In this document: positions 3,766 through 29,809 of the stretch, piece by piece
Layout of the letters: each line of letters opens with the position of its first letter
How positions within the stretch are numbered: position 1 is the first letter of the stretch
Virus record (IMG/VR): IMGVR_UViG_3300031703_000599
Span: 1-64,000 of that record
Length of the DNA stretch: 64,000 bases
DNA from: a virus
Direction: 5' to 3' (one strand)
Made by a program: the position numbers and the translations under genes
The notes under the pieces: generated by a model
The model's database searches: none
What the model saw: only the letters and a program-made list of their open reading frames with translations
Told to the model about the DNA's origin: nothing

Positions 3766-4950
3766 TTGACTGAGAATAAAGGCTTTTGTATACTACCATT
3801 CACTGGTGTCTTTATACAAAATAACAGAATTAGATTATGCTGTGAAAGTAAAGAAGATACTAAGCATTATCTCTCAGGTGATTCTAGTATTTCTGATATA
3901 TGGAATAACCAGTTTTATCAAGATACTAGGACAGAAATGCTTGCTGGCAATTTGCCAGCAGGATGTAGTACGTGCAGAATGGACGAAGCAGCAGGCGAAG
4001 AAAGCATGCGACTGTGGGAAAACTCACAAATTGATAACATTGATGAATACACTGATATAATATGTGCAGCACCTAGTGGGTTTGATGTACGCCCGACTAA
4101 TAAATGTAACCTTGAATGTGTAATGTGTGACGGTGGCGCCAGTACCGCTATTAATAGTAGACTTGTATACCACAATAAAGATGTAACCGGATTTCCCATA
4201 CAAGCAGGCAAAGTATGGGAAGAAAATCGTTTTGTTATTAACCATATTCAACAAAACAGTGATAAGATTACTACAATGAGGTTCGCAGGTGGTGAACCAT
4301 TCTTGATGCCAGAAGTATTAGAAATTATCGATTACTTAGTGAGCACAGGCGAAAGTAAAAACATTAAATTAAGATTCACCACAAACGGCACTGTGGTACG
4401 CAATAAATGGTTCAGTGAGAAATTAGTAAAATTTAAAAGCGTGAAGTTGAATGTAAGCATTGACGCCATTGGTGAGATCGGAGAATACGTAAGGTACCCT
4501 TGTAAGTGGAGTGTAGTGGATAAAAATATGCAGCTCTTTAAGAAAATTGCAAAAAACAATCCACATATAACGATAAGCCTAGCGCCTGTTATACACGTAC
4601 TAACTGCACTAGATATGGATAAAGTAATTGAGTATGCTGCAATTAACAAAATTGATTTAGCATTGACTCCAGTGTATGCTGCTGCCGGCGGCGGGAATCA
4701 TTTATCAACTGAATTATTAACTGACGAACTGAAACAACTTGCATATGATAAAATAATGAATGTGCTTGCACGTTATCCTAATATGGATTTTAACATAGGC
4801 AAAAAGTTTATTACACAACTATTAAGTACGCCACAACTAACTGACGCAACTACAATACAGCAACTTAATAAAGTTATAAGGTATTGGGATAGTCATAGAA
4901 AAGTTAAGTTTTTAGAACAGTACCCATATCTAGATTACTTAATAGAATAA
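3766..4950 (+). CDS. N-terminal twitch-domain radical SAM protein
   Basis: CILPF...CC...CSTC, then CNLECVMC and GGEPF; TTG start at 3766 preferred over the overlapping 3664 start. Confidence 0.9.
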   Translation: MTENKGFCILPFTGVFIQNNRIRLCCESKEDTKHYLSGDSSISDIWNNQFYQDTRTEMLAGNLPAGCSTCRMDEAAGEESMRLWENSQIDNIDEYTDIICAAPSGFDVRPTNKCNLECVMCDGGASTAINSRLVYHNKDVTGFPIQAGKVWEENRFVINHIQQNSDKITTMRFAGGEPFLMPEVLEIIDYLVSTGESKNIKLRFTTNGTVVRNKWFSEKLVKFKSVKLNVSIDAIGEIGEYVRYPCKWSVVDKNMQLFKKIAKNNPHITISLAPVIHVLTALDMDKVIEYAAINKIDLALTPVYAAAGGGNHLSTELLTDELKQLAYDKIMNVLARYPNMDFNIGKKFITQLLSTPQLTDATTIQQLNKVIRYWDSHRKVKFLEQYPYLDYLIE

Positions 4951-4956
4951 AGAACA

Positions 4957-5592
4957 TTATCGTTCACTTAAATGATCAGATACAAACTGTATACTGTCAT
5001 CACATACTCTCACATTAACTACTAACCATAAACTATCACAGTTCGCGCTTGCATTGAACAGTGTATGCGCTTTGGTAGTGTTTACTACGTAGCATTGACC
5101 ATGCTCCCAATGTAAAGTCGTATCTTCTAACATAAACCTAACGTGAGGAGGATTGCAGTTTTCCAACGGCCATATTAATCTAAAGCTAGTTTGTTCTCCA
5201 GTTCTGTGATCGCGGTGCGGCGGAAAGTATCCGCCTGGGTGTAGATTTAAAAAGTGAGACCTTACACTCCATTCTAACATAGGACCAATTACACGTTGTA
5301 ATTCTTCACTTGCATGATAAACATCAGTTGGTATGTTGAAGTCGCGCTCAGAAAATTTAGTGCCATGTTCGCTGTTATACTCACCTAGGCTATCTAGAGC
5401 AGGACCAGGCCCTGCTATTCCACGTTCGTTTATAATGCACAATCCCGATCTACGAATCCACTCTTTACGTGGATTATATTGCGACCATGTACCTGCAAAG
5501 TCTTCAATCTCACCAAACATCTTGTTCACATCAAGCTCTGCGTCTAGTTGGTAAAAGTCTCCAAACTTTGTAATTGCGGATATATCTGCCAT
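4957..5592 (-). CDS. aspartyl/asparaginyl beta-hydroxylase-like Fe(II)/2OG oxygenase
   Basis: PGGYFPPHRD and NTTKAHTLFN (HxD...H triad). Confidence 0.8.
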   Translation of the reverse strand: MADISAITKFGDFYQLDAELDVNKMFGEIEDFAGTWSQYNPRKEWIRRSGLCIINERGIAGPGPALDSLGEYNSEHGTKFSERDFNIPTDVYHASEELQRVIGPMLEWSVRSHFLNLHPGGYFPPHRDHRTGEQTSFRLIWPLENCNPPHVRFMLEDTTLHWEHGQCYVVNTTKAHTLFNASANCDSLWLVVNVRVCDDSIQFVSDHLSER

Positions 5593-6725
5593 TACACCAC
5601 TATCTTGCGTTTAGGAATTTTACTGTCGGCGCTGCTAACGCAACTTTTTGTAGTGCATATAGTTGGCTGTTTAAATAACTGGAATCCTGTTTCAATGTTA
5701 CCAAGTGGTTGATCATGGCAACTATAACTACGCTTAATGCTTCCATCTGGTTCACGTATAATAATACCTTGGTAACCGCTGTTACACATCCACCCTTCAA
5801 AGTTATTAAAGTTGAATGCATTAAACCGCTCTGCTTGGTCCATGTACCAGCTTTTGCCTTTGGAGTCTTTAAACTCTACTTGCATGTTCCATGGAACACT
5901 TGCATCATTTTTACCAATAGTGTAACCAGGCACCTCAAAGCTAGGCTTAGGACGTTTTACTACGTTTGCAATAGCTGCTTTGGCTTCTGTGTAGCTGCGT
6001 TGTGGCATTCCGTTATGCAGCTTTTCTAGCATCTCAGGCGTGTACCCGTCTACAATTTTACTTGCAGTTGGATCACTTTGTGGTTTAAGAGTTACGTTAA
6101 TGCCCTGTTCATGGAAGAACAAAGCATTTTCCCAATCGCGGTCAAACCATTCTGGTACCATAACCTGATTAATTGTAACTTGTATATCATGCTGTTGGCA
6201 GAATATAAGTTTGTCAGCAAATTCTTGTAGTTTTTCTTTTGAGTCTAAATGCTCAGTGTGCAAACTTGCTGTGATACTTGCGCGGTGGAAGGCAGCTACA
6301 GTTTTTACATATGTTTCGTGCCACTTCATTGGGCGGCTCATGTTTGTTGTCATGTGTACACTTGTATAGTTTGTATTATGTACGTCATCAGCGAGATGTT
6401 GTAGCATGTCTAAGTAGCCAGGGTGGAAAGTAGGTTCTCCTCCACTTAAACTAAAGTGGAAACTGTTAAACCCGTTCTCACGTGCTTGTCGCTTAATTTC
6501 ATCTATTGTTATAAGGTTCAATTCCGTAGGACGATGATCTTTTTTACTACTTCTAGCATAAGGCCAGCAGTAACTACAATTGTAGTTACAAAAACGGCCA
6601 AGCAGCCAGCTTACTGTAAACAAATCGCGATATAACAATGTGCGCTGTCCTACGCTAACAATGTCGTCAAATGGGATCTTTGTAAAATCATAATTACTCC
6701 ATTTTAATTCTTCACTATCGCTCAT
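5592..6725 (-). CDS. radical SAM protein with C-terminal twitch/SPASM-like region
   Basis: CNYNCSYC, SGGEPT; C-terminal CNSG...SC...C...SC. Confidence 0.9.
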   Translation of the reverse strand: MSDSEELKWSNYDFTKIPFDDIVSVGQRTLLYRDLFTVSWLLGRFCNYNCSYCWPYARSSKKDHRPTELNLITIDEIKRQARENGFNSFHFSLSGGEPTFHPGYLDMLQHLADDVHNTNYTSVHMTTNMSRPMKWHETYVKTVAAFHRASITASLHTEHLDSKEKLQEFADKLIFCQQHDIQVTINQVMVPEWFDRDWENALFFHEQGINVTLKPQSDPTASKIVDGYTPEMLEKLHNGMPQRSYTEAKAAIANVVKRPKPSFEVPGYTIGKNDASVPWNMQVEFKDSKGKSWYMDQAERFNAFNFNNFEGWMCNSGYQGIIIREPDGSIKRSYSCHDQPLGNIETGFQLFKQPTICTTKSCVSSADSKIPKRKIVV

Positions 6726-7320
6726 ATGTTTCTCCTAGTAAATTATAGCTGTTTAATAGTTCCATGTTTTTCTCTGTGTACTCTGCTAGTGTGTGCTTGA
6801 GGCTGTTTACTGTTATGGTTGAATCAAAGAAATCTATAAGTTTTCTCATTTCTTCTTCGTCTTGTTGAAAGTATAATTTTTCAAAGTTTATAACAAGATC
6901 AACTTCGCCTGTGTCGCCTATTTTAAAATTTAGTTGTTTGTTTGTTACGGAATGTATCTCACTTGGAATTGGTGTGTTATATTGCAATGCATTTTTTAAA
7001 AGTTTAAGTGCGGTTGCATATGTATATCCATATGATGTTGATATATCAATACTGCATGTTTGGTATTGTGCTAGTGCTTCTTTATCTCGTATATATTCAT
7101 ATCTGTGCATAGTAATAATAGGTGAACCACGTTCCATGCTAATATGTGTATCATTATTGTATATATGGTCTATACCAGTGTGAGTTAATGCTGTTACATA
7201 TTCGTTATTTTGAATACTATATACTCCGGCTGATTCGGGCATACCTAATAATTCATACGCTAATCCGCATCCACCTGATCCACCATAAAATATTAAAATC
7301 TTTGTAGTGTTATTCATCAC
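6715..7320 (-). CDS. hypothetical protein, possible sulfotransferase-like P-loop fold
   Basis: N-terminal FYGGSGG loop and INFEKL; weak. Confidence 0.55.
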   Translation of the reverse strand: MMNNTTKILIFYGGSGGCGLAYELLGMPESAGVYSIQNNEYVTALTHTGIDHIYNNDTHISMERGSPIITMHRYEYIRDKEALAQYQTCSIDISTSYGYTYATALKLLKNALQYNTPIPSEIHSVTNKQLNFKIGDTGEVDLVINFEKLYFQQDEEEMRKLIDFFDSTITVNSLKHTLAEYTEKNMELLNSYNLLGETYER

Positions 7321-7882
7321 TTGACCATTCTACCTGTACAGGATCAACACTTAGCTCATTTACTGCTAAGTGCGCTGGTGCGTTGATTACGTATTCAATA
7401 CAATCAACTGCTTCGTCTAGAGTCATTATCTTACGACCTGGATGCTTCTTTGCATTGTTCTCGAGAGTACCAAATGTAACATAACTTACTTTTGGTCCGC
7501 CTTGCCATATGCTTTTTAATCCCATTGCATTACTTGTACTACGCAATGCCTTCTTCTCTTGTTGATAGAGCCAATCTGATCCTTTCGTGGCCCTGTCAGT
7601 TGTGCTACCTAAGTTCACAATATGTAGTCGTTTAAGGTTGGTTAACGCCGCTTTATAGACTACATCTAGTACCAGGGTTTGATGGAACTGCCAGAGTGCG
7701 CTACAGTTAATAAAAACGTCAAAGTTAAGAGCCTTTTCTGCAAGCTTGTGTTTATAGCCATTTTCAGTTAAATCGTATCCCCATGTTGTTCTACCAACAA
7801 ACACAGTTTGAGGCCAGCGTTTGGCAATAGCACTTGCTACACCTTCTTCTGGGTTACCTGTACATAGTATTGTCTTTGTCAT
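7310..7882 (-). CDS. short-chain dehydrogenase/reductase (SDR)
   Basis: TGxxxxG-like start, FINCSA, IVNLGS, YxxxK (YQQEK). Confidence 0.85.
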   Translation of the reverse strand: MTKTILCTGNPEEGVASAIAKRWPQTVFVGRTTWGYDLTENGYKHKLAEKALNFDVFINCSALWQFHQTLVLDVVYKAALTNLKRLHIVNLGSTTDRATKGSDWLYQQEKKALRSTSNAMGLKSIWQGGPKVSYVTFGTLENNAKKHPGRKIMTLDEAVDCIEYVINAPAHLAVNELSVDPVQVEWSSDE

Positions 7883-9099
7883 TAAATAAATCCATTAAAT
7901 TCTGGGCAAGCTTCGAGCAGTTTGCCGCGTTGTAATTCATCCATCTTGAGATTGTAATCAACAAACTCTTGCCAATGTGCGTCATGTGAATCTTCTGTCC
8001 ACATGTATGTTATTACGTCATTTACTTTTGGCCAATGTTTATATTGTTCTAAATTGTCTTGTGCTAGCTGTTTTAATTCTTTTGGTAACACTTGTATATT
8101 CATGCTGCGTGGGTGATTTAATATATTTAAATATACTTGGTCGCCTGTAAGCCCTCTTGATTCTGCAAAGTCTAACAGTTCTGATAGCGCCACAACATTC
8201 AATGCCTGTATTGTACAGTGTATTTGTACGTCCACTGAATCAACTGCCATTAATTTATCAAATACTTCTACTACTTTTTTCCATGAACTAGGATACCTAA
8301 TGTATCTATCTCTAGCACCCACTGCGTCAATTGATGCATTTAATTGTACTCGCTTAAAGTGACTCCAGTAGTCGATCATCTTCTGTGGGATGTTGGTTAG
8401 GTTAGTATTATACTTTAGCTTTATACCAGCTGCTAAGTCATTTTCAATACAGTAATCTAATAATTTATATTGACTTATTGCTAATGTAGGTTCGCCACCT
8501 GTTAAGTAGATTTCTTCTACTGTGTGTGCAATTTCTTGGAAGTTTAATCCTGTTTGTTTGTAATCTGGCCATTCAGTCATTATGTTCATAAACGCTAAAG
8601 TGTCCTCGTCCATTGCCTTGGGTGGATCTAATTTTGCTGTAGGTACAACTGCATTCCAGTCTTTAATCCACATGCTACTAGCCCATGGATTGCACATGCG
8701 GCATTTTAAATTACAAAGGTTACCAAGACGAAGATCAACATATTTAACATCAACTGGAATCTCTACGTCTACCTTGACACCTTCTTTCCACCACTTCTCA
8801 TTAAAGCCAGCGCGTGGGCTACGAATGCCTGCGTCTTCTTCGCGGAAACAACGTACACACATCTCTGGTTTTTCGCCGTCTATAAATTCTTTACGTATCT
8901 TTGTGTAAGTAGGACTGTTCCATACTTCTTCAACATCATGTTTATATATTTTGTATGGTCTATTAGTTTCTGGATTAATGATTTGATTTTCATTTGGGTT
9001 GCTGTTACAACATACACGAAAGCTTCCTGCTGCGTTTGTTGCTACATGCATAAACGGCAGAACGCAAAACGTATCGCTTGGTAATTCTCTTGTACTCAT
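7882..9099 (-). CDS. N-terminal twitch-domain radical SAM protein
   Basis: CVLPF...CC...CVRC; CNLKCRMC; TGGEPT. Confidence 0.92.
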   Translation of the reverse strand: MSTRELPSDTFCVLPFMHVATNAAGSFRVCCNSNPNENQIINPETNRPYKIYKHDVEEVWNSPTYTKIRKEFIDGEKPEMCVRCFREEDAGIRSPRAGFNEKWWKEGVKVDVEIPVDVKYVDLRLGNLCNLKCRMCNPWASSMWIKDWNAVVPTAKLDPPKAMDEDTLAFMNIMTEWPDYKQTGLNFQEIAHTVEEIYLTGGEPTLAISQYKLLDYCIENDLAAGIKLKYNTNLTNIPQKMIDYWSHFKRVQLNASIDAVGARDRYIRYPSSWKKVVEVFDKLMAVDSVDVQIHCTIQALNVVALSELLDFAESRGLTGDQVYLNILNHPRSMNIQVLPKELKQLAQDNLEQYKHWPKVNDVITYMWTEDSHDAHWQEFVDYNLKMDELQRGKLLEACPEFNGFI

Positions 9100-9124
9100 T
9101 TGTATGACTCCGTGTATATAATGT

Positions 9125-9131
9125 TATTTAT
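9125..9131 (-). promoter_or_regulatory. putative T4-like late promoter (ATAAATA)
   Basis: ATAAATA in the short gap upstream of the gene starting at 9099. Confidence 0.5.
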
Positions 9132-10102
9132 TAGATAAAATCTAAGTAGTTTGTATTGTGTATCTTATCTAATATTTTACTTTGTGTTATCAGTTTTGCT
9201 TTTAGCACAGGGTCTTCTAACGCGCCCGGAGACATAAATTTTGGTGATATCACAGGAGTAGATATTTGATGATTTATATTGTTATCATTGCACCATTTAA
9301 CAATTTCACTTAGGTTATCTTTGTTAAATACCATAGGTAAAATAGTAACAGTAATCCATGTGTTAGTGGGTCGTTGACTATTAAATTTAACACAATTTTC
9401 ACTTGTTGTCAACCAGCTTGCGCCTGGACGTATATATTCGTAACGTGCGCCCACTGCTTCTATACTTATATTTATACTAACACTTTTGAACTTCTCAAAC
9501 AAATGGTTCCATGCTGTTAAGTCATGACTTCCATTTGTTATTAGTTCTAGTTGTATTGCAGGAGCTACGTCTTCATCTATCAACTGTTGAATAATTTTAC
9601 GAACTTGTGGAATCATAAATGGTTCTCCACCTGTGAATTTTACAACACTGGCGTCAAGCATTTCAGTTGTGAATCCCAGTGCTTCTTTGGACCAACGTCT
9701 TCCAGTTTTCTTATCGTAATACTTACTCCAATCCTCATCTGGGTTATCTCTAATAATGTTCGTCCATGTGCTACTACTTGTCTGATTGCACATTCTACAC
9801 GCAAAATTGCATGTGTTGTTTATCTTTAAATCCCAATGTTTAATGCCTACTTCGTCACTTAGTGTTCTGTTATAATGTTTCCGTAGACTTTCGCCGGTTA
9901 GTTCTTCTGACAGTTCGCACTCTGCGCATTCGCTTAACCATTTAGTTTCGCTTAATTTGTCTAACTCTGCATGCTTGGTCGCCCAATCATCTTCCCAGTA
10001 TAAATTTTCAACGCCCGGTGGGACTGTGTATGCACAACATGGTCTTACTGCACCAGTTGGTCCTATAGTAACACCATGCTTAAATATTGAGCATTTTGGC
10101 AT
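9131..10102 (-). CDS. N-terminal twitch-domain radical SAM protein
   Basis: C...PCC...CAEC; CNFACRMC; TGGEPF; start moved to MPKCSIF. Confidence 0.9.
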   Translation of the reverse strand: MPKCSIFKHGVTIGPTGAVRPCCAYTVPPGVENLYWEDDWATKHAELDKLSETKWLSECAECELSEELTGESLRKHYNRTLSDEVGIKHWDLKINNTCNFACRMCNQTSSSTWTNIIRDNPDEDWSKYYDKKTGRRWSKEALGFTTEMLDASVVKFTGGEPFMIPQVRKIIQQLIDEDVAPAIQLELITNGSHDLTAWNHLFEKFKSVSINISIEAVGARYEYIRPGASWLTTSENCVKFNSQRPTNTWITVTILPMVFNKDNLSEIVKWCNDNNINHQISTPVISPKFMSPGALEDPVLKAKLITQSKILDKIHNTNYLDFI

Positions 10103-10832
10103 AACCGTCCCTTGCTTTTTCTTTAAGTAGGTCACTCTGATCGCCATCAAATATCATATGTATACGTGGCTCTTCGCTACGGTTCCAGACTGCATGTTCG
10201 TACCCTGTGTTAAGTTTGAATGCACTGCCTGGAGTATAAGGCAGTGTTCCCCAGCCACCCATGACTAGTTTACATTCATCTGGATTGTTAAGAGCGACAT
10301 TAGTGGCGCCTACTCCAGTGATACTAGGACGGTCTCGATGAGGCGCGAGCCAGCCACCTGGTAGTACAGCCATGAAACGTACACGTGTAAACACGTCATA
10401 TAGCTTGCTGTCAAGCATCCATTCCTTGGTGCGCGGTGTAAACTTGCTTATGTCAGTCCAGTCGCTTAGATCGCGTTCTGCGCTGTCTGGTAAGTTGTAG
10501 TCTGATGGTACATTTGTGTGTACGCTGCTCATGCCATATACACACAAACTTAGCCAGCCGCTACTGTTGGGGCGGTGGAGTGTGTAGCAGCTTGTGTACA
10601 ATAAGTGGTTAGCTTCTTCGTGTATATCTTTCCAAGGTATGTCAATTCCAAGATCAATCCATGGCATCTTAGTGTTATCTAATATATGGTCTAGCTCTTC
10701 CTTTCCTTCCTCCAATACACTTGCATCGTCTACACCTTTAAATGTTGGCGTGATATTTTCATTCTCTGCGAAGAACTTTTTTGTATCGCGATTGGGAGCT
10801 GTCCATTCCAGTTGTTGTCCTTCATACCACAT
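10080..10832 (-). CDS. aspartyl/asparaginyl beta-hydroxylase-like Fe(II)/2OG oxygenase
   Basis: PGGWLAPHRD and HAVWNRSEEPRIH. Confidence 0.85.
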   Translation of the reverse strand: MWYEGQQLEWTAPNRDTKKFFAENENITPTFKGVDDASVLEEGKEELDHILDNTKMPWIDLGIDIPWKDIHEEANHLLYTSCYTLHRPNSSGWLSLCVYGMSSVHTNVPSDYNLPDSAERDLSDWTDISKFTPRTKEWMLDSKLYDVFTRVRFMAVLPGGWLAPHRDRPSITGVGATNVALNNPDECKLVMGGWGTLPYTPGSAFKLNTGYEHAVWNRSEEPRIHMIFDGDQSDLLKEKARDGYAKMLNI

Positions 10833-13773: not shown

Positions 13774-13785
13774 TGTTTATTCCTC

Positions 13786-14502
13786 CTATGCGTCTATGTT
13801 TAAATTAGTTAAAATATAATTTTTTGGGTCATCTCTGTCGTATGAGTTAGTATGATAATCATGACCTGTAATCATAGGATGTTCTCTAATATTCATATCT
13901 GGATTAGGATATCCACAACCTAACAACAATGCAACGCTGTCCTGTTTATTATAAGTAATACCATGAACTTCTAGCATGTGTGCTTTTACTATTTTTCCAA
14001 CTTCATCGCGATCAAAACATAAGCAGTTACCTGTACGTAGTCCAAGTCTGTTAGCTTCGTATCCCATCATTCCCATTGATGAACCTACTCCAGTAAACGT
14101 GTTTAATTCTTCGTCTTTATGTAGTTCAGCGTTAGTCAATGTGTAATATGGTTCGTCTGGTTCACGTGGTGTTGGTTTAGATAGTTTTACCCATGCAAAC
14201 AACACTGGTGCCAACACTTGTGCGTTGCCAACTAATGTAACTGGTGTACCATCGTTGTATATTTTCTGTTCTCTGAGCTCTGGATCTTCGCCTGGGCGAG
14301 CTGAGTTCATCCATATTGCTTTTGATAACTCTGGGCTCTGTATTGCTACTAAGTCAAAATATCGTCTACCTTGCTTAAATGGGCCACCTGTTCCAATGTC
14401 CAATAAGTGTTGTACTAGTTCTGCTGGTACTGGTGTATCAGCATAGTTTCTTGCAGTAATTTTAAACTTGGCTGCTGCGTCAAGTGATTCTTGATAATTC
14501 AC
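13786..14502 (-). CDS. nitroreductase-family flavoprotein
   Basis: TARNY..TPVP..L..LL...GPFKQG; LGLRTGNC; LLLGCGYP. Confidence 0.8.
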   Translation of the reverse strand: MNYQESLDAAAKFKITARNYADTPVPAELVQHLLDIGTGGPFKQGRRYFDLVAIQSPELSKAIWMNSARPGEDPELREQKIYNDGTPVTLVGNAQVLAPVLFAWVKLSKPTPREPDEPYYTLTNAELHKDEELNTFTGVGSSMGMMGYEANRLGLRTGNCLCFDRDEVGKIVKAHMLEVHGITYNKQDSVALLLGCGYPNPDMNIREHPMITGHDYHTNSYDRDDPKNYILTNLNIDA

Positions 14503-22385: not shown

Positions 22386-22415
22386 ATAATTGCGCCCTTT
22401 TGTTTAATATAAATA

Positions 22416-22422
22416 TATTTAT
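22416..22422 (-). promoter_or_regulatory. putative late promoter (ATAAATA) for the leftward enzyme operon
   Basis: ATAAATA about 30 nt upstream of the amidinotransferase ATG. Confidence 0.5.
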
Positions 22423-22471
22423 CCACGTAGTTAATGGACTATATAAATTGTTCTATTCTGTTTATGTCACT

Positions 22472-22500
22472 ATTATAACACTGATATGGTATTAGAGCAA
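22472..22500 (-). promoter_or_regulatory. sigma70-like promoter, leftward
   Basis: TTGCTC-N17-TATAAT. Confidence 0.55.
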
Positions 22501-22511
22501 GCATTATTAAC

Positions 22512-22545
22512 TTGACAAACACGCCTTTTGTGTGTATTATAAATA
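22512..22545 (+). promoter_or_regulatory. overlapping sigma70-like (TTGACA-N17-TATTAT) and late (TATAAATA) promoter, rightward
   Basis: both motifs visible in the divergent intergenic region. Confidence 0.65.
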
Positions 22546-22565
22546 CAATTAACAAAGGATAATCA

Positions 22566-23402
22566 ATGACTAGAATTGCATACGACAGCGTAGCCAAAGA
22601 ACAATTTAAAGTTCACGTATTTAATATAACAGACATTTCTGAAATAGCAGACACTGACGAAATGTATGCAGCGTTTGAAAGTGGCTGGCCAGTCGTTATT
22701 AAAGGATTGACTATCCCAGGTGTGGACTACGATTATTATGATAATTTAAAAGATTGGACAATTAAAGACAACAAGTGGATTATGCCTTGGTATAACAGCC
22801 ACATTAAAAAGCGTGACAGGCTACGTAATGAACGTAACTGGTCCGAAGAACAAATTGATAAATTCCACAAAAAGCATAAGCAGGCTAACAATGGATGGAA
22901 CGAAATATTTGATATTGTGTTTCCTAGATATAATACACAAGAGCGCATGCTTAGTCACCGCTACAATACACTAGTAGAAAACAAACTACACTTAGACGAA
23001 CTGGATGATCAGCACACAGGCAACGAACAACAAATTCGTATGTTTGTGCAGCTAGACAAGAAGCGGCCGCGTGTGCTTAGTTTTGGTCCTGACTTAGAAC
23101 GATTATACAATGACTACAAAGATGAGTTTAACCTAGACGAGTTAGACAAGAATAATGTACACACGTTTATTACTGAAATGCGAAACCGTTGTGTATGGAA
23201 TGAACAGAAATGGGATCAGTTTCATCACCCGTTACATTACATTACATTTGATCCAGGTGATATATGGTTTTTTAACGCGCAATGGATTACACACCAGATT
23301 GTGTTTGGCACAAAGCTCCAATGCTTCGAAGCTGATATATTAAACGATAGTTTACAGTATCCGGACCTATGCATGAAAGAAAGGATTAAAGGTCTTGAGT
23401 AG
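22566..23402 (+). CDS. Kdo hydroxylase (KdoO)-like Fe(II)/2OG dioxygenase
   Basis: LHLD...IRMFVQLD..RPRV..FG and F.PGDIWF......HQ..FG follow the KdoO family pattern. Confidence 0.65.
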   Translation: MTRIAYDSVAKEQFKVHVFNITDISEIADTDEMYAAFESGWPVVIKGLTIPGVDYDYYDNLKDWTIKDNKWIMPWYNSHIKKRDRLRNERNWSEEQIDKFHKKHKQANNGWNEIFDIVFPRYNTQERMLSHRYNTLVENKLHLDELDDQHTGNEQQIRMFVQLDKKRPRVLSFGPDLERLYNDYKDEFNLDELDKNNVHTFITEMRNRCVWNEQKWDQFHHPLHYITFDPGDIWFFNAQWITHQIVFGTKLQCFEADILNDSLQYPDLCMKERIKGLE

Positions 23403-24411
23403 TATTCGACATACAATTATCAACGATTATCTACCTGCAGATATCTTTAAAAAGTACAGTGAAGAATATCCAGTAGAATGGATAAAAGAATACTGTAGTA
23501 ATCCAGAAGTAAGCGAACACGACAGTAGTCTACATGGCAACTATAGTGCGCCTGCAGAGTTATATGATCCAAACTTAATGAAGTTTGTTGAAAGTAAACT
23601 GCCTGCTCTTAAATTTGATGCAGTGGGTAGAGATGTAAAGCACGATCACTTTTATACTAGCTTCCATTATGACGAAAGCGGTAGCTGGTTGGAACCACAC
23701 AACGACTTAAAAGATATGCGTTGGTTAGTCACTAGTCAAATATACATGAATGAGAATCAAGGTGCTAGATTATTAGATAGAAACCTTAATATAAAAAAAC
23801 AAATTCCATGTTATCCAAATCTATTTTATAGCATTGTTGCCGATATGTGGAGTTGGCATGATGTACCTGAAGTGTCTAAACACAAACAAAGTATCTTATT
23901 TCGCGTAGGTAGACGCAGAAGTAATACAGTCGCTAATCCGGATCCTGGCAGTGATACATGCTATGTTATATACAATAACTTCCAAAAGGATAGGCATTAT
24001 GCTAAACTAGGACCACGCATGGGTAACTTAACAGAAGCTTGGTTGTATAAACTAGGAGCAAGTAATATAATGCACAGCGCGTGGCGTAATGAAGATAGCT
24101 TAAAAAGGTGTATTAAGAAGGGCTTAAACCGTCATACACGGGTGGTTGTGCTGCTAAGTGGGTTCATGCCAGCCTCGTTAGAAATAGACGATTGTAGCGC
24201 ACTACAGACGGTTACAAGCAAGGATTATGAATTGAATTTAGATGCAGATGTAGACAATGATGATTATTTTCGTGTAACAGATGATAACATAGATGCGTAT
24301 GCAGCATGCATATTCAGCGATTTAAGCATAGATCATCCACTAGTTGAAGCCGAGCAAGTAATGTGTCATTACTACGCTAGCAAGGCGCATTTGAATTACA
24401 CAGACCTTTAA
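23395..24411 (+). CDS. Fe(II)/2OG oxygenase fused to an unknown C-terminal domain
   Basis: WLEPHND...QIYMN...SWHDV; TTG start. Confidence 0.75.
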   Translation: MSSIRHTIINDYLPADIFKKYSEEYPVEWIKEYCSNPEVSEHDSSLHGNYSAPAELYDPNLMKFVESKLPALKFDAVGRDVKHDHFYTSFHYDESGSWLEPHNDLKDMRWLVTSQIYMNENQGARLLDRNLNIKKQIPCYPNLFYSIVADMWSWHDVPEVSKHKQSILFRVGRRRSNTVANPDPGSDTCYVIYNNFQKDRHYAKLGPRMGNLTEAWLYKLGASNIMHSAWRNEDSLKRCIKKGLNRHTRVVVLLSGFMPASLEIDDCSALQTVTSKDYELNLDADVDNDDYFRVTDDNIDAYAACIFSDLSIDHPLVEAEQVMCHYYASKAHLNYTDL

Positions 24412-25145
24412 ACATACATATTTAATATATTAACATTTTCTTCTGATAAAATGTAATTTTCTAATGCCCAGTCGTTTCCTTTAGGAGACCAGTGAGCGTC
24501 GGTTGGAGATATAGTAAGGCCATTGTTGAACAATGCATTATCGTCACGTCTGTCAACATTATGTGCTGCTGCCATTAGTGCAAAGGCATTTGGTATATCT
24601 TGGTGCGCTACATCATCCATTAACTCAAGCGGTATTATATGTTTAAAATTATAAAGATTTTTAACATTATCAAACCATTTCATGTTATGATCTTGATACG
24701 TTGATGATAAAGCCTTGTATCGCAAAGCATTGCCCATGTGGCTTTCGTCCTTTGCAGACCAGTAGCCTCCATTGTCGTGCTGAGTTGAATACTTATCACT
24801 GGCTGCACTATACCACATGTGATGTCGGTTATCAACTTCTAAATTAGAATATCGCATGCCGCTTATTGTAGATAAAGGTTCATGATTAAACTCAAAATCA
24901 GCATCGCCGTTAAGCAATGATGTACGTGCAAGATGTGTTCTATTAATAAAGACGATGTCCACTGACTGTCGTTTTGCATCCAATAGACACCATTGGCAGT
25001 AGTCTACTCCACGCCCGCCTGCTGCATAATTATAATATTCATATTGAGGGAATTGTTGTGCTAGTTTCCATGACCAGTGATTTTCATACTGGCCTGCCTG
25101 GTTATAGGCACTAAAGCTGTCGCCAACAAATGCAATTTTCTTCAT
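24408..25145 (-). CDS. SGNH/GDSL hydrolase-like protein
   Basis: FVGDSFS, NYAAGG, DAHWS..GN. Confidence 0.75.
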   Translation of the reverse strand: MKKIAFVGDSFSAYNQAGQYENHWSWKLAQQFPQYEYYNYAAGGRGVDYCQWCLLDAKRQSVDIVFINRTHLARTSLLNGDADFEFNHEPLSTISGMRYSNLEVDNRHHMWYSAASDKYSTQHDNGGYWSAKDESHMGNALRYKALSSTYQDHNMKWFDNVKNLYNFKHIIPLELMDDVAHQDIPNAFALMAAAHNVDRRDDNALFNNGLTISPTDAHWSPKGNDWALENYILSEENVNILNMYV

Positions 25146-25171
25146 TTATGTATTCCTCTTCTATCGTTTAA

Positions 25172-26434
25172 TCACAGATGGTTTTTAATTCGTTTAAATT
25201 CAGGCGACACAGACATAACATCGTGTCCTCTGAATATATCGTAGTTTTCAGTAGTACTAACATACTGTTTCATTATTTCTGCATTGTATGTATGATCTGG
25301 ATCTTTTCCAAATTGTACCATTTCCATTAGCGGTTCTTCGTAGTCCGTAAAGTGTGGGCTGTTACGTATACTTTCTAAGAATTCTAAGACTTGTGCTTCT
25401 TGTTCATCTCTTAACCATTGTGGACTGTGTGCCATGCTATAATAATGTGGTTCAATTAGTTGGTTAGTACTCATGCCAATGCCCTTGCTTACTGTACACT
25501 GATAGTCGTGCATAAACTTCCAAAAGGGTACAATATGCAATGCATTAGTCATTTGATTTACTGTAGTAACACGTACTTTAATACGCTTACCGGCCTTGGT
25601 GTTACTGAATTTAACTAATTTGTCAAAGTTTTTCCATACAGATGCCCACTTAGAAGGAGGACGCAGATAGTCATTCATTTCAAACATTCCCTCAAGTGAA
25701 CAATTGACAATCACTTTTTCGAACTTACCAAGCTGCTCTAGCCAACGATCTTGCATATTGGTAATATTAGTATAAAAACTTAGTTCGATGTGACTAGCGT
25801 GTCCGGAGTCTACTGCTATATCAAGCAGTCTAAACATATCCCTTGCTACTGTTGGCTCCCCGCCTATTAGTTTAATTTTACGAGCTTTTCCCATCATTTC
25901 CTCGAAGCTCGTCCAGTCAATTCCAGGTTGAAGAAGAGCCTGCTTCTTGTCTGCAATCATGCCTTGCCAATCCGGGTGGTCGGTCCCGAGTCCGCTTTCG
26001 ACCATTAGTGCTCGTTCCACGCTGACTAAGTGCGAAGCTTCTTTGTTGCACATTTGACATTGTAAATTGCATAGATTGCCAAGCCTGAAATCAAATTGTA
26101 AAGGTTGTTCAACCTCCCAATCGTTAACGGAAGCATCAGCCACTACTTCGTCAATTACATCTTCCCATACCTCGTTTTCCCACTGTCGAGAGCTTACAAT
26201 ATTATTACGTTCTAAGTGTAAGCACTCTGAACATTCGGGCAGCCACTCTCCATTGCTCATGCGTTCACGTACATCCTTGATGTAGTCATGATTCCATGTA
26301 CCATCTATGCCTAGTTTTTCCTGGTCAACTAGTGTTTCTGGTTCTTTAGCCATACAACATAATCTATAACGTCCGCCGTTGTATGTGCTATATTGTACAA
26401 ATGGTAACGCGCAAAAGCCGCCTTTTTCGCTCAT
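25172..26434 (-). CDS. N-terminal twitch-domain radical SAM protein
   Basis: CALPF...LCC...CSEC; CNLQCQMC; IGGEPT. Confidence 0.92.
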   Translation of the reverse strand: MSEKGGFCALPFVQYSTYNGGRYRLCCMAKEPETLVDQEKLGIDGTWNHDYIKDVRERMSNGEWLPECSECLHLERNNIVSSRQWENEVWEDVIDEVVADASVNDWEVEQPLQFDFRLGNLCNLQCQMCNKEASHLVSVERALMVESGLGTDHPDWQGMIADKKQALLQPGIDWTSFEEMMGKARKIKLIGGEPTVARDMFRLLDIAVDSGHASHIELSFYTNITNMQDRWLEQLGKFEKVIVNCSLEGMFEMNDYLRPPSKWASVWKNFDKLVKFSNTKAGKRIKVRVTTVNQMTNALHIVPFWKFMHDYQCTVSKGIGMSTNQLIEPHYYSMAHSPQWLRDEQEAQVLEFLESIRNSPHFTDYEEPLMEMVQFGKDPDHTYNAEIMKQYVSTTENYDIFRGHDVMSVSPEFKRIKNHL

Positions 26435-26437
26435 CAG

Positions 26438-26983
26438 TTAGTATTCCTTTAACAAGTTAAGAAATAATTCTGCGCCTGCTGCTTGGTTCTCTTCCCAAGT
26501 GTGTGATGCATTCTCATCTGCCATATCGCTACCATACTTTAATAGCGTTACTGGTTTATTAAAATGCTTCGCTACTTTAGCAATTGCATAACCTTCCATG
26601 TCAACTAGGTCACTTGGCAGTTCTGGTGGACTCATAACAAAGTTATCGCCTGTGCTTAGTACGATGCCTGTATCTGATAATCCAATTTCTGCTGCCCAAT
26701 CACTTTTGTCAAATGGTGTCGTTCCTAGTTCAGCTTGTGGACGTGCATCCATGTCACGTTGTATAACTGATCCAATTGTATTAAGTTTGCCTGCATACTC
26801 TGCACTTAATACACCTGCTGTTCCAAAATTGATAACTGAATCACAATCTTGTTGTATACAAGCAAGTGCAGCATATGTAGTTGCGTTAATTTTACCAACG
26901 CCAGTGAACCATACTTTATATGTTGCTGGATCTAAATTATGATCAGGTAGCTCACCTGCTAATGCAACTAGTACATAAATCAT
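26438..26983 (-). CDS. mtnN: 5'-methylthioadenosine/S-adenosylhomocysteine nucleosidase
   Basis: TGVGKINA, INFGTAG, STGDNF, DMEGYAIA, SDMAD. Confidence 0.85.
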   Translation of the reverse strand: MIYVLVALAGELPDHNLDPATYKVWFTGVGKINATTYAALACIQQDCDSVINFGTAGVLSAEYAGKLNTIGSVIQRDMDARPQAELGTTPFDKSDWAAEIGLSDTGIVLSTGDNFVMSPPELPSDLVDMEGYAIAKVAKHFNKPVTLLKYGSDMADENASHTWEENQAAGAELFLNLLKEY

Positions 26984-28425
26984 TCAACTGCTCCGTCTTC
27001 TGGTTCGTCTAGTAAATAGCCCATGTCAGGGAATGTAGCACGGAAATCAGTTCCACGCATGTCGTCTAGTTTATTGATGTACTCTCTAAACTCAGGTAAA
27101 CGTTGTGTCCAATCTTCACTGCGAGCAAAGTTAACCATTCCTCGTAATCGCTTAATACCATATTCTGCATTTAGCCATTGCTCTTTTGTTACCTTACCCT
27201 TGTGCCAACTTGGAACACCTAGTTCCCAATTCTCTGTCCACCATTCAATGAACTCTTCGTACTTGGCTTCTGTTTTATCAAGGAATTCATCTGGTAATAC
27301 CTTAACATTCAAATGACCAGGCCAATAAACAAAGTGATAGTTAATACCACCTGCTCCAAATGGCCACATGTTTGTCTTCTTTAGTCCGCTTTGTGTTAGC
27401 TTCCATTTAAGGAAGTCTGGAATATAGTGAATGTTAAGTGCATTAACTGCACAAGCTATTGTAACCTCTACGTTGTTTGATGTCTCTTTGTCTAGACGTT
27501 CAAACATTGCTAGCTGATGTGACCATTCGCTTGGGTAACGAATATAATCATTCATGTCACCAATGCTGTCAATGCTGTAATGGAAACGAACCTTCTTAAA
27601 GTGTTTCCATTGCTCTAGTAAACGATCTGGTAGTTCAATGCCGTTACTGTTATAGCGTAATTCAATACCTTCTGCGTATCCCATTTCAATAACTTTATCT
27701 AAGATATCATAATGTTCTTCAATGACAGTTGATTCGCCACCTGCAAAATACAACTGACGCATATGTGGAATTTGTGCATAGAATTGATCCCAAAATGTAG
27801 GATTGTTCTTGTGCCAGTTATAACTAGCGCCGAACGTTTTTCCTTTCTCATCCCATGACATTGTTTGTTTTAGACTTTCATTTGTAATTTGTGGATATAG
27901 TTTATTCCAATCCTTTACCCATCCACTTGAGTCATGTGGGCTACACATAATACAGCCTAGCTGGCACTTTGTTCCCATGCGAATGTCAATATATCGCAAT
28001 TTTGAATCAGTTGATCCATCTGCGTATGTTTGTTCTACTAATTCATCAACGTCAATTCCGTTGTTCATCCAGTATTGTGTTTCCCATTGGCGTTTAGATC
28101 TATGTCCAGCAGCTTCTTCTTTAAAACATTTTAGACAACTAGCAGGCTGTTCACCTGCAAGCATTTGCTGCCTAACGTTACGCATGTATGTATTATTCCA
28201 TGCTGTTTCCAAATCTGTTGTGTTTAAGTTAGCTGGCTTACCATCTTCTGTTTTTACAATACCTACTCGTCCGCCGTGAACTTTGTCGTTTGTTGCGCCT
28301 ACGCTTGATGCGTTAGCTGTGCAACATACTCGCATACTTCCATCTGGGCGTGTGCTTAAATGAATCCACGGAAGAATACAAAATGTATCTGATGGAGTTG
28401 GTAAATCATGTTCGTTATTTGACAT
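26980..28425 (-). CDS. N-terminal twitch-domain radical SAM protein
   Basis: CILPW...VCC...CLKC; CQLGCIMC; AGGES. Confidence 0.92.
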   Translation of the reverse strand: MSNNEHDLPTPSDTFCILPWIHLSTRPDGSMRVCCTANASSVGATNDKVHGGRVGIVKTEDGKPANLNTTDLETAWNNTYMRNVRQQMLAGEQPASCLKCFKEEAAGHRSKRQWETQYWMNNGIDVDELVEQTYADGSTDSKLRYIDIRMGTKCQLGCIMCSPHDSSGWVKDWNKLYPQITNESLKQTMSWDEKGKTFGASYNWHKNNPTFWDQFYAQIPHMRQLYFAGGESTVIEEHYDILDKVIEMGYAEGIELRYNSNGIELPDRLLEQWKHFKKVRFHYSIDSIGDMNDYIRYPSEWSHQLAMFERLDKETSNNVEVTIACAVNALNIHYIPDFLKWKLTQSGLKKTNMWPFGAGGINYHFVYWPGHLNVKVLPDEFLDKTEAKYEEFIEWWTENWELGVPSWHKGKVTKEQWLNAEYGIKRLRGMVNFARSEDWTQRLPEFREYINKLDDMRGTDFRATFPDMGYLLDEPEDGAVE

Positions 28426-29139
28426 TTAGTTTTCCTTTAAATCGTATGTTGTATCTGCGGAACCGTTTCGTACTAGATCCCATGTTGCTTCGGTTGCGGT
28501 GCCAGTTAGTTGCAAACATGGTCGCTTGTGCCAACTTCCGTTCCATGTTAAATGAGGCAATGTGCTCCATTCCCATGTAAAAACAGTGCCAGCTTTCCAT
28601 TGTGTATACACCCTGTTTCCAAATTGAATTATTTGACCAGGTTCCCAATCTTCCATTGGAATTAAAAAGCGTATTTTATTAATATCTTGATATTTAAATT
28701 CTGTGTTATCTATTACACGATCTTTGCGAGGATTGCCTGGCAAATTATCTATGTGCCACATAAGCTGATCATTTGGAAACTGATCATTAAACTTACATGT
28801 AAATTTTTCTGTTTTGTCTAAGTGTAGCATATCTACAATTTGCATAAACTTTGGAAATTGTCCTACGTGCTTATCAAAATTAACCTTACGAAACATTGTT
28901 GCGTTTGGCTTTCCATTTGGATTTTCTTTATCTTCATCTAAATGATCTGTGCTGCTAACGTTAGCTGCATGTTCATACCGTTGCTTATTGTATACCTGAG
29001 GCTCTACTCCAATGTCACGTGCTTTAGCTATTTCGTCTGACCATTGTCCTTTAAACTGTCCAATGATTTTAACGTATTCGCCTTCCTGGTCTTCTTTAAA
29101 TTTATCAAAGTGCCAAGGTGACTTAAACGGGGTAGGCAT
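28426..29139 (-). CDS. Fe(II)/2OG oxygenase-like protein
   Basis: WHID...PHLTWNG...R (HxD...H...R). Confidence 0.75.
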   Translation of the reverse strand: MPTPFKSPWHFDKFKEDQEGEYVKIIGQFKGQWSDEIAKARDIGVEPQVYNKQRYEHAANVSSTDHLDEDKENPNGKPNATMFRKVNFDKHVGQFPKFMQIVDMLHLDKTEKFTCKFNDQFPNDQLMWHIDNLPGNPRKDRVIDNTEFKYQDINKIRFLIPMEDWEPGQIIQFGNRVYTQWKAGTVFTWEWSTLPHLTWNGSWHKRPCLQLTGTATEATWDLVRNGSADTTYDLKEN

Positions 29140-29143
29140 TAAT

Positions 29144-29809
29144 TTATTTCTCCGGTATCATACACGAAGCAATGTACACATCGCTTGTTTTGCTATGCAT
29201 GTATTTAGCCTTTGATTTGTTGAAGCCTTCTATATTTTTAAAACTAGTAGCGGGATCATATTTCGCCCATGCTATGTTCTTTGTCATTGCAAAGTCTACT
29301 ATTTTAGAATTTTCTTTAAATATTAGATCTCGCATAGTGTTGTAATCGGTGTATCCGGGCCTATAGTCAGGGTAGTGACTATCACTGAAGTCCATTACCT
29401 CGCTCCACCATGCGAAACTCTTTTGACTTTCGCGGTATGCTAGTACAATGTAGTCGCCTGGAAAATGATTATAGATGTAGTCTAAATTAAAGCTACGGGC
29501 AAAGAAGTGGCTCTTAATAACACGATGTCCTGTTCCACTGAATACAGTGTTAATATCATCTTGCAATTTGTGAGGGTACAAATAGTTAAAGTCTTTCCAG
29601 TCTTCCCCACACCCCATGCCAGGGCCCCAATATGAGCCCCTGTGTCCGTTGTTGTCGTCTTTAGGATTTACTGGTCGATGATAACATGTACGGTCAGGAG
29701 ATTCGTCAGTGGTATCAGCATCAATTAATTGCCTTAATTGAATATCTATACCACTCCACTTACTTCCTGGTACTCCGCAGAACCATATGTTTTTCTGTCT
29801 GTCTGCCAT
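29144..29809 (-). CDS. P-loop/sulfotransferase-like hypothetical protein
   Basis: GVPGSKWS, VIKSH, IVLAYR. Confidence 0.6.
   Translation of the reverse strand: MADRQKNIWFCGVPGSKWSGIDIQLRQLIDADTTDESPDRTCYHRPVNPKDDNNGHRGSYWGPGMGCGEDWKDFNYLYPHKLQDDINTVFSGTGHRVIKSHFFARSFNLDYIYNHFPGDYIVLAYRESQKSFAWWSEVMDFSDSHYPDYRPGYTDYNTMRDLIFKENSKIVDFAMTKNIAWAKYDPATSFKNIEGFNKSKAKYMHSKTSDVYIASCMIPEK

Follow-up and report, generated by a model that had tools for sequence, protein, structure and literature searches.

The stretch analysed here (the window) comprises 64,000 nucleotides, positions 1-64,000 of IMG/VR virus record IMGVR_UViG_3300031703_000599, which is 98.6 kb long and an estimated 28% complete. At 3766-29809 it carries a block of 26,044 bp and 27 open reading frames (ORFs) that encodes ten radical S-adenosylmethionine (SAM) enzymes. 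The source is an uncultured giant phage from the sea; its block is genuine, of viral origin and conserved, and has not been characterised. On balance it is probably a cytoplasmic, multi-step pathway that tailors a carbohydrate and transfers it to an acceptor. The sugar being edited is plausibly a 3-deoxy-2-ulosonic acid of the 3-deoxy-D-manno-oct-2-ulosonic acid (Kdo) or nonulosonic type, or else a nucleotide-activated sugar. Three observations carry this reading: the only block enzyme with a specific structural relative resembles the hydroxylase of a 3-deoxy-ulosonic acid sugar, two transferase-like/methyltransferase-like proteins belong to the core, and homologous genes in cultured phages are linked by their context to glycan assembly. 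A first-pass annotation of the sequence had proposed a virion protein, a virion glycan or a small molecule as the target. Among these options a glycan or sugar is now favoured because of a KdoO-like fold, two proteins that join GT-A and methyltransferase folds, a StrB1-type amidinotransferase and the glycosyltransferase context of related genes in phage S-SCSM2R; direct modification of a peptide has become less likely.

A bacterial or chimeric origin of the contig had been a concern, and it is set aside by the IMG/VR assignment, an even GC level along the window (0.37-0.41), the same order of block and flanks in independent assemblies and a large terminase in a relative (G004, a 205-kb record). 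A search of five relatives for the Gp23 capsid family found nothing, as did its control. Homologues of block genes occur on contigs up to 322 kb. Nineteen genes, referred to below as core, are common to four phages, namely the source and the related contigs G001, G003 and G005, and the core is found in the same order at twelve related viral loci. The three other contigs show synteny along the whole stretch between 29809 and 5592, with identities of 31-90%, and this extends through the flanking genes as far as 34304, so the gene content is co-conserved, as had been anticipated. The accessory genes are 3766-4950, 4957-5592, 6715-7320, 13786-14502, 16917-17489, 18413-19021, 23395-24411 and 24408-25145. 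The view that no characterised pathway has this composition also holds, since no match to one was found. When 20 kb of the block was compared with 50,697 phage records by megablast, nothing matched, and NCBIfam and PHROGs scans of unassigned proteins (16 and 10 proteins, respectively) returned nothing. No membrane-spanning segment is predicted in any block protein; the block enzymes are soluble.

The most specific pointer to a substrate comes from one oxygenase.

22566-23402 (+): KdoO-like iron/2-oxoglutarate (Fe/2OG) dioxygenase, by predicted fold and an HxD...H motif; core.

KdoO (PDB 5yka, 5y9x and 6a2e) is the Kdo 3-hydroxylase of the inner core of lipopolysaccharide (LPS), and the AlphaFold2 model of 22566-23402 (pLDDT 88.3) appears to share its fold over the full length. 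Foldseek pairs the model with 5yka at E 2e-11 (TM 0.67), and structural alignment to KdoO gives Z 20.8 with a root-mean-square deviation of 3.1 A over 244 of 278 residues at 16% identity. The next fold is JMJD7 at Z 11.7, so that all other 2OG oxygenases trail KdoO by 9 Z units or more. The iron triad H142-x-D144...H243 is invariant in 22 sequences. No match to KdoO was found at the sequence level, either by PDB phmmer or by Pfam even with the E threshold raised to 10 (a setting that still filters out most matches above ~0.1), which returned only a chance T4_tail_cap hit. Judged by its modelled fold, the protein is a clear structural relative of KdoO, placed in a phage tailoring block rather than in an LPS locus.

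Candidates for the transfer step are two adjacent paralogs.

10832-12322 (-): 496-aa protein with a GT-A-like N-terminal half and a class I methyltransferase-like C-terminal half, by predicted structure; core.
12322-13773 (-): 483-aa paralog of the preceding protein, 24% identical over 430 aa (E 7e-21); core, syntenic.

An AlphaFold2 model of the 496-aa protein, built from an alignment of 43 homologues, reaches pLDDT 91.5. Residues 9-280 match GT-A folds (majastridin, LARGE1, LH3, GlyE, PBCV-1, R699) at Z 9.3-10.3, and residues 270-490 match NNMT at Z 9.1-9.6. The sequence P309-x-S-G-L-H-Q and an invariant D333 are plausible methyltransferase motifs I and II, without a hidden Markov model (HMM) match. 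In giant viruses, soluble GT-A enzymes, some of them fused to a methyltransferase, build the virion glycan independently of host machinery. Structures of such GT-A proteins from chlorovirus PBCV-1 and Mimivirus (R699) are among the matches, at Z 9.3-9.4, no better than many other GT-A proteins, and no sequence homology of the block proteins to them was seen. All 77 protein clusters of the 496-aa family come from metagenome or viral contigs, and none carries a Pfam domain. The family profile gave no confirmed match in a search of one genome per prokaryote species and nothing among PDB sequences, and tblastn of the protein against phages found no match; its full-length structural relatives are only uncharacterised proteins of uncultured phages.

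The best-defined enzyme by sequence homology is encoded by the first gene of the long leftward run.

21306-22385 (-): amidinotransferase; core, 76-88% identical in relatives.

Its PDB matches are HsvA (1.3e-25), StrB1 (2.4e-17), SxtG (3.7e-15) and AGAT (1.6e-13), and its C-terminal GGIHC at 339-343 aligns with FHC of the S-SCSM2R enzyme ORF309. Homology thus confirms its placement as an amidinotransferase of the StrB1/HsvA type, and the enzymes closest to it, HsvA, StrB1 and SxtG, amidinate small amines and aminocyclitols. StrB1 (PDB 1bwd), the second-best solved homologue, also invites comparison with the streptidine and 2-deoxystreptamine pathways: the block has a twitch radical SAM enzyme, a pyridoxal phosphate (PLP) aminotransferase-like protein and an amidinotransferase, the enzyme types that convert a secondary alcohol to a guanidino group. 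The cyclitol synthase, kinase and phosphatase of the aminoglycoside pathways were not detected.

Glycan context is provided by the cultured T4-like marine Synechococcus phage S-SCSM2R. Its ORF301-310 are annotated as an aminotransferase, a radical SAM enzyme, an amidinotransferase, two 2OG oxygenases and five glycosyltransferases. The amidinotransferase (ORF309) is homologous to 21306-22385 (E 7e-14), and the radical SAM enzyme (ORF306) to 20267-21349 (24% identity, E 1e-9). A second S-SCSM2R amidinotransferase adjoins genes annotated as KdsA and KdsB and was found in purified virions (PMC12801897). The operon differs in having one radical SAM gene only, and its transferases are annotated as ordinary glycosyltransferase families rather than a GT-A/methyltransferase fusion. 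Its aminotransferase has no detectable similarity to 17515-18420. S-SCSM2R was not among the records matched by the twitch radical SAM protein 7882-9099 described below, which suggests that it has no paralog of that family. The genes were read by the authors as "antibiotic synthesis genes", without any test (PMC12801897).

Ten of the 27 ORFs encode radical SAM enzymes.

3766-4950 (+): N-terminal-twitch radical SAM enzyme (NF033640, 274.5 bits); accessory, no orthologue in relatives.
5592-6725 (-): radical SAM enzyme with no auxiliary domain detected (PF04055, 54 bits); core, 76-84% identical in relatives.
7882-9099 (-): N-terminal-twitch radical SAM enzyme (NF033640, 376 bits); core 1:1 orthogroup.
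9131-10150 (-): N-terminal-twitch radical SAM enzyme, the shortest paralog (NF033640, 180.9 bits); core orthogroup.
14499-15773 (-): N-terminal-twitch radical SAM enzyme (NF033640, 313.8 bits); core orthogroup.
15728-16933 (-): N-terminal-twitch radical SAM enzyme (NF033640, 247.5 bits); core orthogroup.
19011-20267 (-): N-terminal-twitch radical SAM enzyme (NF033640, 266 bits); core orthogroup.
20267-21349 (-): radical SAM enzyme with a C-terminal SPASM domain (PF04055, and PF13186 at residues 271-353), directly downstream of the amidinotransferase gene; core.
25172-26434 (-): N-terminal-twitch radical SAM enzyme (NF033640, 282 bits); core orthogroup.
26980-28425 (-): N-terminal-twitch radical SAM enzyme, the most conserved block gene (NF033640, 418 bits); 85-90% identical in relatives.

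All ten match Pfam PF04055 (Radical_SAM) and contain CxxxCxxC. Eight pass the curated 170-bit cut-off of NF033640 (N_Twi_rSAM, "twitch domain-containing radical SAM protein") with 180.9-418.1 bits, covering model positions ~1-397, the whole model. The two below it are 20267-21349 (37.5 bits) and 5592-6725 (45.7 bits); for the latter the best NCBIfam matches are partial and far under their cut-offs (N_Twi 45.7 bits, viperin 39, MoaA 35). In an alignment of the eight paralogs, C12, C81 and C84 of an N-terminal Cys-rich twitch region and C129/C133/C136 of the CxxxCxxC motif are invariant, and a CC pair near position 34 is absent from 19011-20267. The auxiliary-cluster domain is N-terminal, the reverse of the usual order, because the Cys-rich region and, in four of the eight ORFs, the Pfam SPASM match precede the SAM-cluster motif. 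The founding twitch enzyme, BtrN, has its twitch domain at the C-terminus, and no sequence match to BtrN was seen at E<=0.001 with PDB phmmer.

The paralogs are old. Expansion of NF033640 distinguishes this lineage, with eight above-cut-off copies in the block and 9-18 in related partial records, out of 13-25 Radical_SAM matches in each. A quick IQ-TREE phylogeny of 38 N_Twi proteins from four phages resolves seven groups with exactly one member per phage and support of 99-100; 3766-4950 is a singleton on a long branch. Stems of the seven orthogroups measure 1.0-2.5 changes per site and tips 0.05-0.25. Long stems, short tips and 1:1 orthogroups show that the paralogs are old and that each has been retained, a pattern that fits seven distinct jobs rather than recent redundancy. 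G003 and G005 have four further radical SAM orthogroups inserted. Their insert of ~6 kb lies between the SDR-like gene described below and the last radical SAM gene, and in G003 it holds three further N_Twi genes and a 238-aa stand-alone radical SAM core (G003 81344-82060 = L019:6344-7060). The most conserved member, 26980-28425, has >3,000 metagenome homologues at E<=1e-10; among one genome per prokaryote species, only a 942-bp contig of a metagenome-assembled genome was matched.

Two further sets of radical SAM genes were noted. At 45200-47286 (+) of the window are two short radical SAM cores (214 and 230 aa; Radical_SAM matches) followed by two small ORFs. The cultured Vibrio phages K566 and K567 (255 kb) carry three radical SAM genes in a small block with hypothetical genes (record positions 160041-167037 in K566); one of the three matches 7882-9099 at 25% identity across 98% of its length, making it a possible laboratory model for the N_Twi family.

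The first-pass annotation had reasoned that SPASM/twitch radical SAM enzymes and Asp/Asn beta-hydroxylases mostly act on peptides. This rule is a weak guide here: the substrate of BtrN is an aminocyclitol, and LpxO, which hydroxylates lipid A, is in the same family (PF05118) as the Asp/Asn beta-hydroxylases. The remaining genes of the block are as follows.

4957-5592 (-): Asp/Asn beta-hydroxylase-like Fe/2OG oxygenase (PF05118, 27.7 bits against a cut-off of 22.6); accessory, in G001 and G002 only.
6715-7320 (-): 201-aa protein with an N-terminal glycine-rich loop and no Pfam, NCBIfam or PHROG match; accessory.
7310-7882 (-): short Rossmann protein resembling short-chain dehydrogenases/reductases (SDR), with a Gly-rich N-terminus, YxxxK and PDB 2nwq at E 0.077; core, 78-89% identical in relatives.
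10080-10832 (-): Asp/Asn beta-hydroxylase-like Fe/2OG oxygenase (PF05118, 44.4 bits); core, 58-61% identical in G001, G003 and G005 and 43-81% across further loci.
13786-14502 (-): weakly nitroreductase-like (PF00881, E 0.0059, 17.2 bits, under the cut-off); accessory, absent from G001, G003 and G005.
16917-17489 (-): protein without enzyme motifs, 28% identical to 18413-19021; accessory and fast-evolving, absent or 24-39% identical in relatives.
17515-18420 (-): putative PLP-dependent aminotransferase, weak (PF00155, E 0.0038; PDB 3ju7, E 0.016); core, 53-69% identical.
18413-19021 (-): no enzyme motifs; accessory, its very small family having only 8 clusters in a set of 1.84 billion representatives.
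23395-24411 (+): putative oxygenase, by an HxD and later His motif only; accessory, homologues only in G001 and locus L001.
24408-25145 (-): weakly SGNH/GDSL hydrolase-like (N-terminal GDS motif; PF13472, E 0.046); accessory, absent from relatives.
26438-26983 (-): short nucleosidase-like protein of the methylthioadenosine/S-adenosylhomocysteine (MTA/SAH; 5'-deoxyadenosine) type (PF01048, 53.6 bits); core.
28426-29139 (-): putative oxygenase, by an HxD and later His motif only; core, 62-71% identical in relatives.
29144-29809 (-): sulfotransferase-like, by an Atlas language-model look-up only; core.

Most of the inventory first drawn up for the block was recovered. The ten radical SAM enzymes, the amidinotransferase and the MTA/SAH nucleosidase stand, and three of five Fe/2OG oxygenases are verified; the other two, 23395-24411 and 28426-29139, are known by motif and gave no match in family and PDB searches. 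The PLP, nitroreductase, SDR and SGNH calls have weak scores or motifs only. One of the two proteins called P-loop/sulfotransferase-like, 29144-29809, is backed by the Atlas feature search, where it scores 0.98 against a viral cluster labelled "sulfotransferase family" and 0.93-0.94 against clusters with Sulfotransfer_1/3, with no HMM match and nothing useful from PDB phmmer; the other, 6715-7320, found no family. The 25 PDB matches of 26438-26983 consist almost wholly of MTA/SAH nucleosidases, with a few designed repeat proteins among them; the best is 4pr3 at 3.8e-8. At 181 aa against ~230, its N-terminus is ~45 aa shorter, alignments begin at about residue 48-55 and the ORF cannot be extended, so it is not a full-length nucleosidase with the N-terminal catalytic region. 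For 18413-19021, Atlas neighbours with tail-fibre domains score <0.9 and offer a lead only.

Outside the block lies a gene that may supply it.

50821-51909 (-): S-adenosylmethionine synthetase, MetK (PF02773, 197 bits; phrog_1569, E 7.8e-117).

MetK is kept in four of five related records, although PHROGs labels the family "unknown function". Radical SAM enzymes are inhibited by 5'-deoxyadenosine, which MTA/SAH nucleosidase removes; for this reason MetK and the nucleosidase-like gene in the block likely support heavy SAM turnover under the combined radical SAM and methyltransferase load.

In the favoured carbohydrate pathway, the twitch radical SAM enzymes would perform oxygen-independent C-H chemistry on the sugar, such as alcohol oxidation, epimerisation, dehydration or C-methylation, each paralog acting at its own position or step. 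The PLP-like enzyme would then transaminate a keto intermediate, and the amidinotransferase, drawing on arginine as donor, would make the resulting amine a guanidino group; this succession of oxidation, transamination and amidination would follow the logic of streptidine synthesis. The KdoO-like and Asp/Asn-hydroxylase-like oxygenases would add hydroxyls, and the sulfotransferase-like and SGNH-like proteins may add or remove sulfate and acyl groups. Finally, the two GT-A/methyltransferase proteins would transfer and O-methylate the unit, as MetK provides SAM and the nucleosidase clears inhibitory 5'-deoxyadenosine. The acceptor could be a virion protein, the host LPS core or another glycoconjugate.

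Several points weigh against this pathway. The block has no gene for sugar-nucleotide synthesis, and neither the KdsA nor the KdsB family turned up in five partial records (28-56% complete). No known pathway for a single sugar calls for as many as ten radical SAM enzymes and up to five oxygenases. The N_Twi enzymes have no solved relative at E<=0.001 (PDB phmmer), and we know of no characterised member of NF033640 and of no N_Twi enzyme with a known substrate; a full-text literature search for the family name or "N-terminal twitch" returned no study of the family. The GT-A match of the 496-aa protein is middling for a model-based comparison (Z ~10, many tied rows). The candidates for its DxD-type metal/nucleotide-sugar motif are a near-invariant E237-D238 and an H168-D-D stretch, and conserved His and Cys residues in the domain could point to another activity. 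The PLP, SDR, SGNH and nitroreductase calls are weak by sequence score.

The best-surviving alternative is a special case of sugar tailoring in which the target is the host envelope; it is unlikely as the full account. Here, host Kdo-lipid A or LPS core would be hydroxylated, amidinated, methylated and glycosylated at the cytoplasmic face, altering receptors, for example for superinfection exclusion or to keep progeny from being trapped on debris. KdoO hydroxylates the outer Kdo of Kdo2-lipid A, so the fold of 22566-23402 fits, as does the shared PF05118 membership of LpxO and the two Asp/Asn-hydroxylase-like block proteins. The phage fragments hold no Kdo synthesis genes, which would make host Kdo the substrate, and the sigma70-like promoter of the KdoO-like unit (see below) fits early expression by host polymerase. 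However, LpxO is membrane-bound and no block protein has a membrane anchor, the Pfam search described above gave no Kdo-hydroxylase match, and ten radical SAM enzymes are hard to fit on an LPS core.

Direct post-translational modification, either of a peptide, as in RiPPs (peptides synthesised on ribosomes and modified post-translationally), or of a virion protein encoded elsewhere, is improbable. The NCBIfam similarities of the radical SAM enzymes to PapB, ScmE/F, WgkB and mycofactocin maturase speak for it, but they are weak, at 20-56 bits against cut-offs of 265-650. PF05118 is named for protein Asp/Asn hydroxylases, and an S-SCSM2R amidinotransferase (ORF266) and a prolyl dihydroxylase were found in purified virions (PMC12801897). 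Tight packing without room for a precursor had been claimed for the block, and the count agrees: it is 98.9% coding, the majority of ORF junctions overlap by 1-71 bases, and there is no precursor-sized free ORF. The single real gap (22386-22565, 180 bp) has as its only ORF a weak 39-aa GTG candidate at 22376-22495. Pfam reports no PqqD/RRE-type domain. A RiPP locus was accordingly rejected as the lead reading on the missing precursor-sized ORF, the missing RRE and the sub-threshold maturase scores. The small motif-free proteins 16917-17489 and 18413-19021, inside the block, could in principle serve as substrates, but both are missing in G003, where the enzymes are kept, and as a common substrate these paralogs were rejected on that ground and on the 8 clusters of the family. 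The amidinotransferase, the GT-A domains and the KdoO-like enzyme, moreover, have no role in known RiPP routes.

Of similarly low probability is a free small molecule made in the infected cell, an aminocyclitol, aminoglycoside-like or guanidino compound serving as inhibitor, signal or cofactor. The amidinotransferase is nearest to the small-molecule pathway enzymes HsvA, StrB1 and SxtG, the trio of twitch radical SAM enzyme, aminotransferase and amidinotransferase mirrors streptidine/2-deoxystreptamine chemistry, and the S-SCSM2R authors gave the name of antibiotic synthesis genes to three genes (PMC12801897). Yet Pfam, NCBIfam and PHROGs scans detected no exporter, resistance gene, inositol-phosphate synthase or 2-deoxy-scyllo-inosose synthase, and the block has no membrane protein. 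The equivalents in S-SCSM2R and CP220 sit amid annotated glycosyltransferases, and the two transferase-like core proteins suggest attachment to an acceptor.

Least probable is hypermodification of phage DNA or nucleotides, with a side chain built on a base and attached to DNA by the GT-A-like proteins: a QueE-like radical SAM gene and a methyltransferase-like gene lie at 51.9-54.0 kb of the window, phage hypermodification pathways reportedly use radical SAM and PLP enzymes, and CP220-type phages carry modified guanine, but known pathways of this kind need at most one or two radical SAM enzymes, Pfam finds no base-hydroxymethylase, DNA glycosylase-like transferase (DpdA/TGT) or kinase in the block, the 7-deazaguanine genes are 20 kb off and outside the syntenic block, and the KdoO-like fold points to a sugar acid.

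A comparable phage gene set is that of the T4-like Campylobacter phages CP220 and CPt10, whose 11-12 clustered radical SAM genes were called highly unusual by the authors (Timms et al. 2010, PMC2853527). Each cluster there, like the block, has an amidinotransferase gene with a radical SAM gene directly after it, and two annotated nucleotide-diphospho-sugar transferase genes are nearby (PMC2853527). The CP220 amidinotransferase is homologous to 21306-22385 (26% identity, E 3e-21). However, the radical SAM protein gp087 has no detectable similarity to 20267-21349, and the GT-A-like gp088 has no detectable homology to the 496-aa family (hhalign probability 0.7%); the resemblance is thus one of composition, with only some genes homologous. 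By annotation of one gene, the CP220 arrangement has the radical SAM domain N-terminal and a Cys-rich tail C-terminal, rather than an N-terminal twitch. In the stretch of CP220 annotation covered, no KdoO-like, nucleosidase or sulfotransferase-like gene is listed.

A host recognition cluster has been described for pelagimyophages and cyanomyophages; in pelagimyophages it has radical SAM cassettes, and an Asp/Asn beta-hydroxylase is a core gene of those phages (Zaragoza-Solas et al. 2020, PMC7029224). Structural genes border that island, and tail fibres are part of it, whereas the block is flanked by early-type, MoxR/VWA, clamp-loader and nucleotide-metabolism genes in a genome about twice as large. 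The neighbours comprise small early-type genes, a staphylococcal-nuclease-like protein, a MoxR/VWA pair and tRNAs, and in G003 a gp44-like clamp loader, phosphoribosyl pyrophosphate synthetase and ClpP. With the block set among replication and metabolism genes in this lineage, and not beside tail or structural genes, the virion, proposed earlier, is only one possible target.

Several of these surrounding genes can be described individually. At 662-982 (+), amid small early-type genes, is a 106-aa protein with a cREC_REC cyclic-phosphate processing receiver domain (PF20274, 94.7 bits). The staphylococcal-nuclease-like gene at 3318-3764 (+), directly left of the block and conserved in G001 and G002, encodes a hydrophobic N-terminus (KD 1.93). 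To the right, four small conserved ORFs (97, 202, 68 and 93 aa) at 29825-31269 (-) lie upstream of the right arm and may be co-transcribed with the block; the 202-aa product ends in a basic KRGRPSK, and an ATAAATA motif is found at 30991. They are followed at 31262-34304 (-) by a DUF2201 metallopeptidase/VWA gene and a MoxR-type ATPase gene (phrog_1297) with two small ORFs between them, syntenic with the block in relatives. Further away, at 51934-54035 (-), the QueE-like radical SAM gene (phrog_2076) adjoins that for the methyltransferase-like protein; the pair may form a module for 7-deazaguanine DNA modification, distinct from the block. Sugar genes elsewhere on the record include a Nol-type carbamoyltransferase (phrog_1601, E 2e-95; G000 95192-96694 = L023:12192-13694, minus strand) and, at window 62323-63336 (-) outside the block, a nucleotide-sugar epimerase (phrog_540).

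Expression of the block may be set from the one intergenic gap.

22386-22565 (strand not assigned): divergent control region, with a ATAAATATATTTAT dyad near the start of the minus-strand operon and TTGACA-17-TATTAT, overlapping TATAAATA, before the plus-strand unit.

The dyad ATAAATATATTTAT lies ~30 nt from the amidinotransferase start; it is the same in G001 and occurs as a spaced variant in G003. The plus-strand unit with the KdoO-like gene has a near-consensus sigma70-like promoter, TTGACA-17-TATTAT, that agrees at 11 of 12 positions, and G001 has TTGACA-17-TATACT at the same place. Because dyad and promoter are kept in relatives, the divergent gap likely contains a conserved regulatory element. 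ATAAATA motifs at 9125, 22416 and 22538 had been interpreted as T4-type late promoters. The motifs themselves are there, with a bias in position: of the 18 copies of the 7-mer, which include these three sites, nine are in sense orientation no more than 70 nt upstream of a gene, and seven are in non-coding DNA, which makes up 8.6% of the window. With 8 occurrences against 7.2 expected, the 8-mer TATAAATA shows no enrichment in the window, and the late-promoter reading is only partly supported.

Kits of this sort are already known from phages, and the block is a greatly enlarged version of them; the published examples (CP220/CPt10, S-SCSM2R and the pelagimyophages) are descriptive only. New here are the support from structure for the KdoO-like enzyme, the division of the radical SAM paralogs into orthogroups, the role of supply gene given to MetK, the homology that ties the block to the glycan operon of S-SCSM2R, and a GT-A/methyltransferase family not found in prokaryote genomes (one genome per species). 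A more far-reaching and more tentative version of the proposal, which is possible but doubtful, is that a cosmopolitan lineage of marine jumbo phages of ~320 kb has expanded the N_Twi radical SAM family into at least seven enzymes that diverged long ago and are each conserved, and uses them with a hydroxylase of the KdoO type, an amidinotransferase and GT-A/methyltransferase fusions known only from viruses to make a hitherto unknown series of radical edits on an ulosonic-acid-type sugar, giving a guanidino glycan attached to the virion or the host envelope. If true, this would be a new, virus-made branch of radical SAM carbohydrate chemistry.

Although radical SAM enzymes are costly and sensitive to oxygen, this lineage carries 13-25 of their genes per partial genome, against 11-12 in CP220. 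The pathway is probably common in the sea, since the most conserved block gene has thousands of ocean-metagenome homologues. Cultured phages with smaller, similar kits, namely S-SCSM2R on Synechococcus WH7803, CP220 on Campylobacter and the Vibrio phages K566 and K567, offer experimental entry points. An identified product, possibly new guanidino or ulosonic sugars, would give a chemistry to an orphan radical SAM family and would reveal what abundant marine phages decorate, whether the virion, the host envelope or something else.

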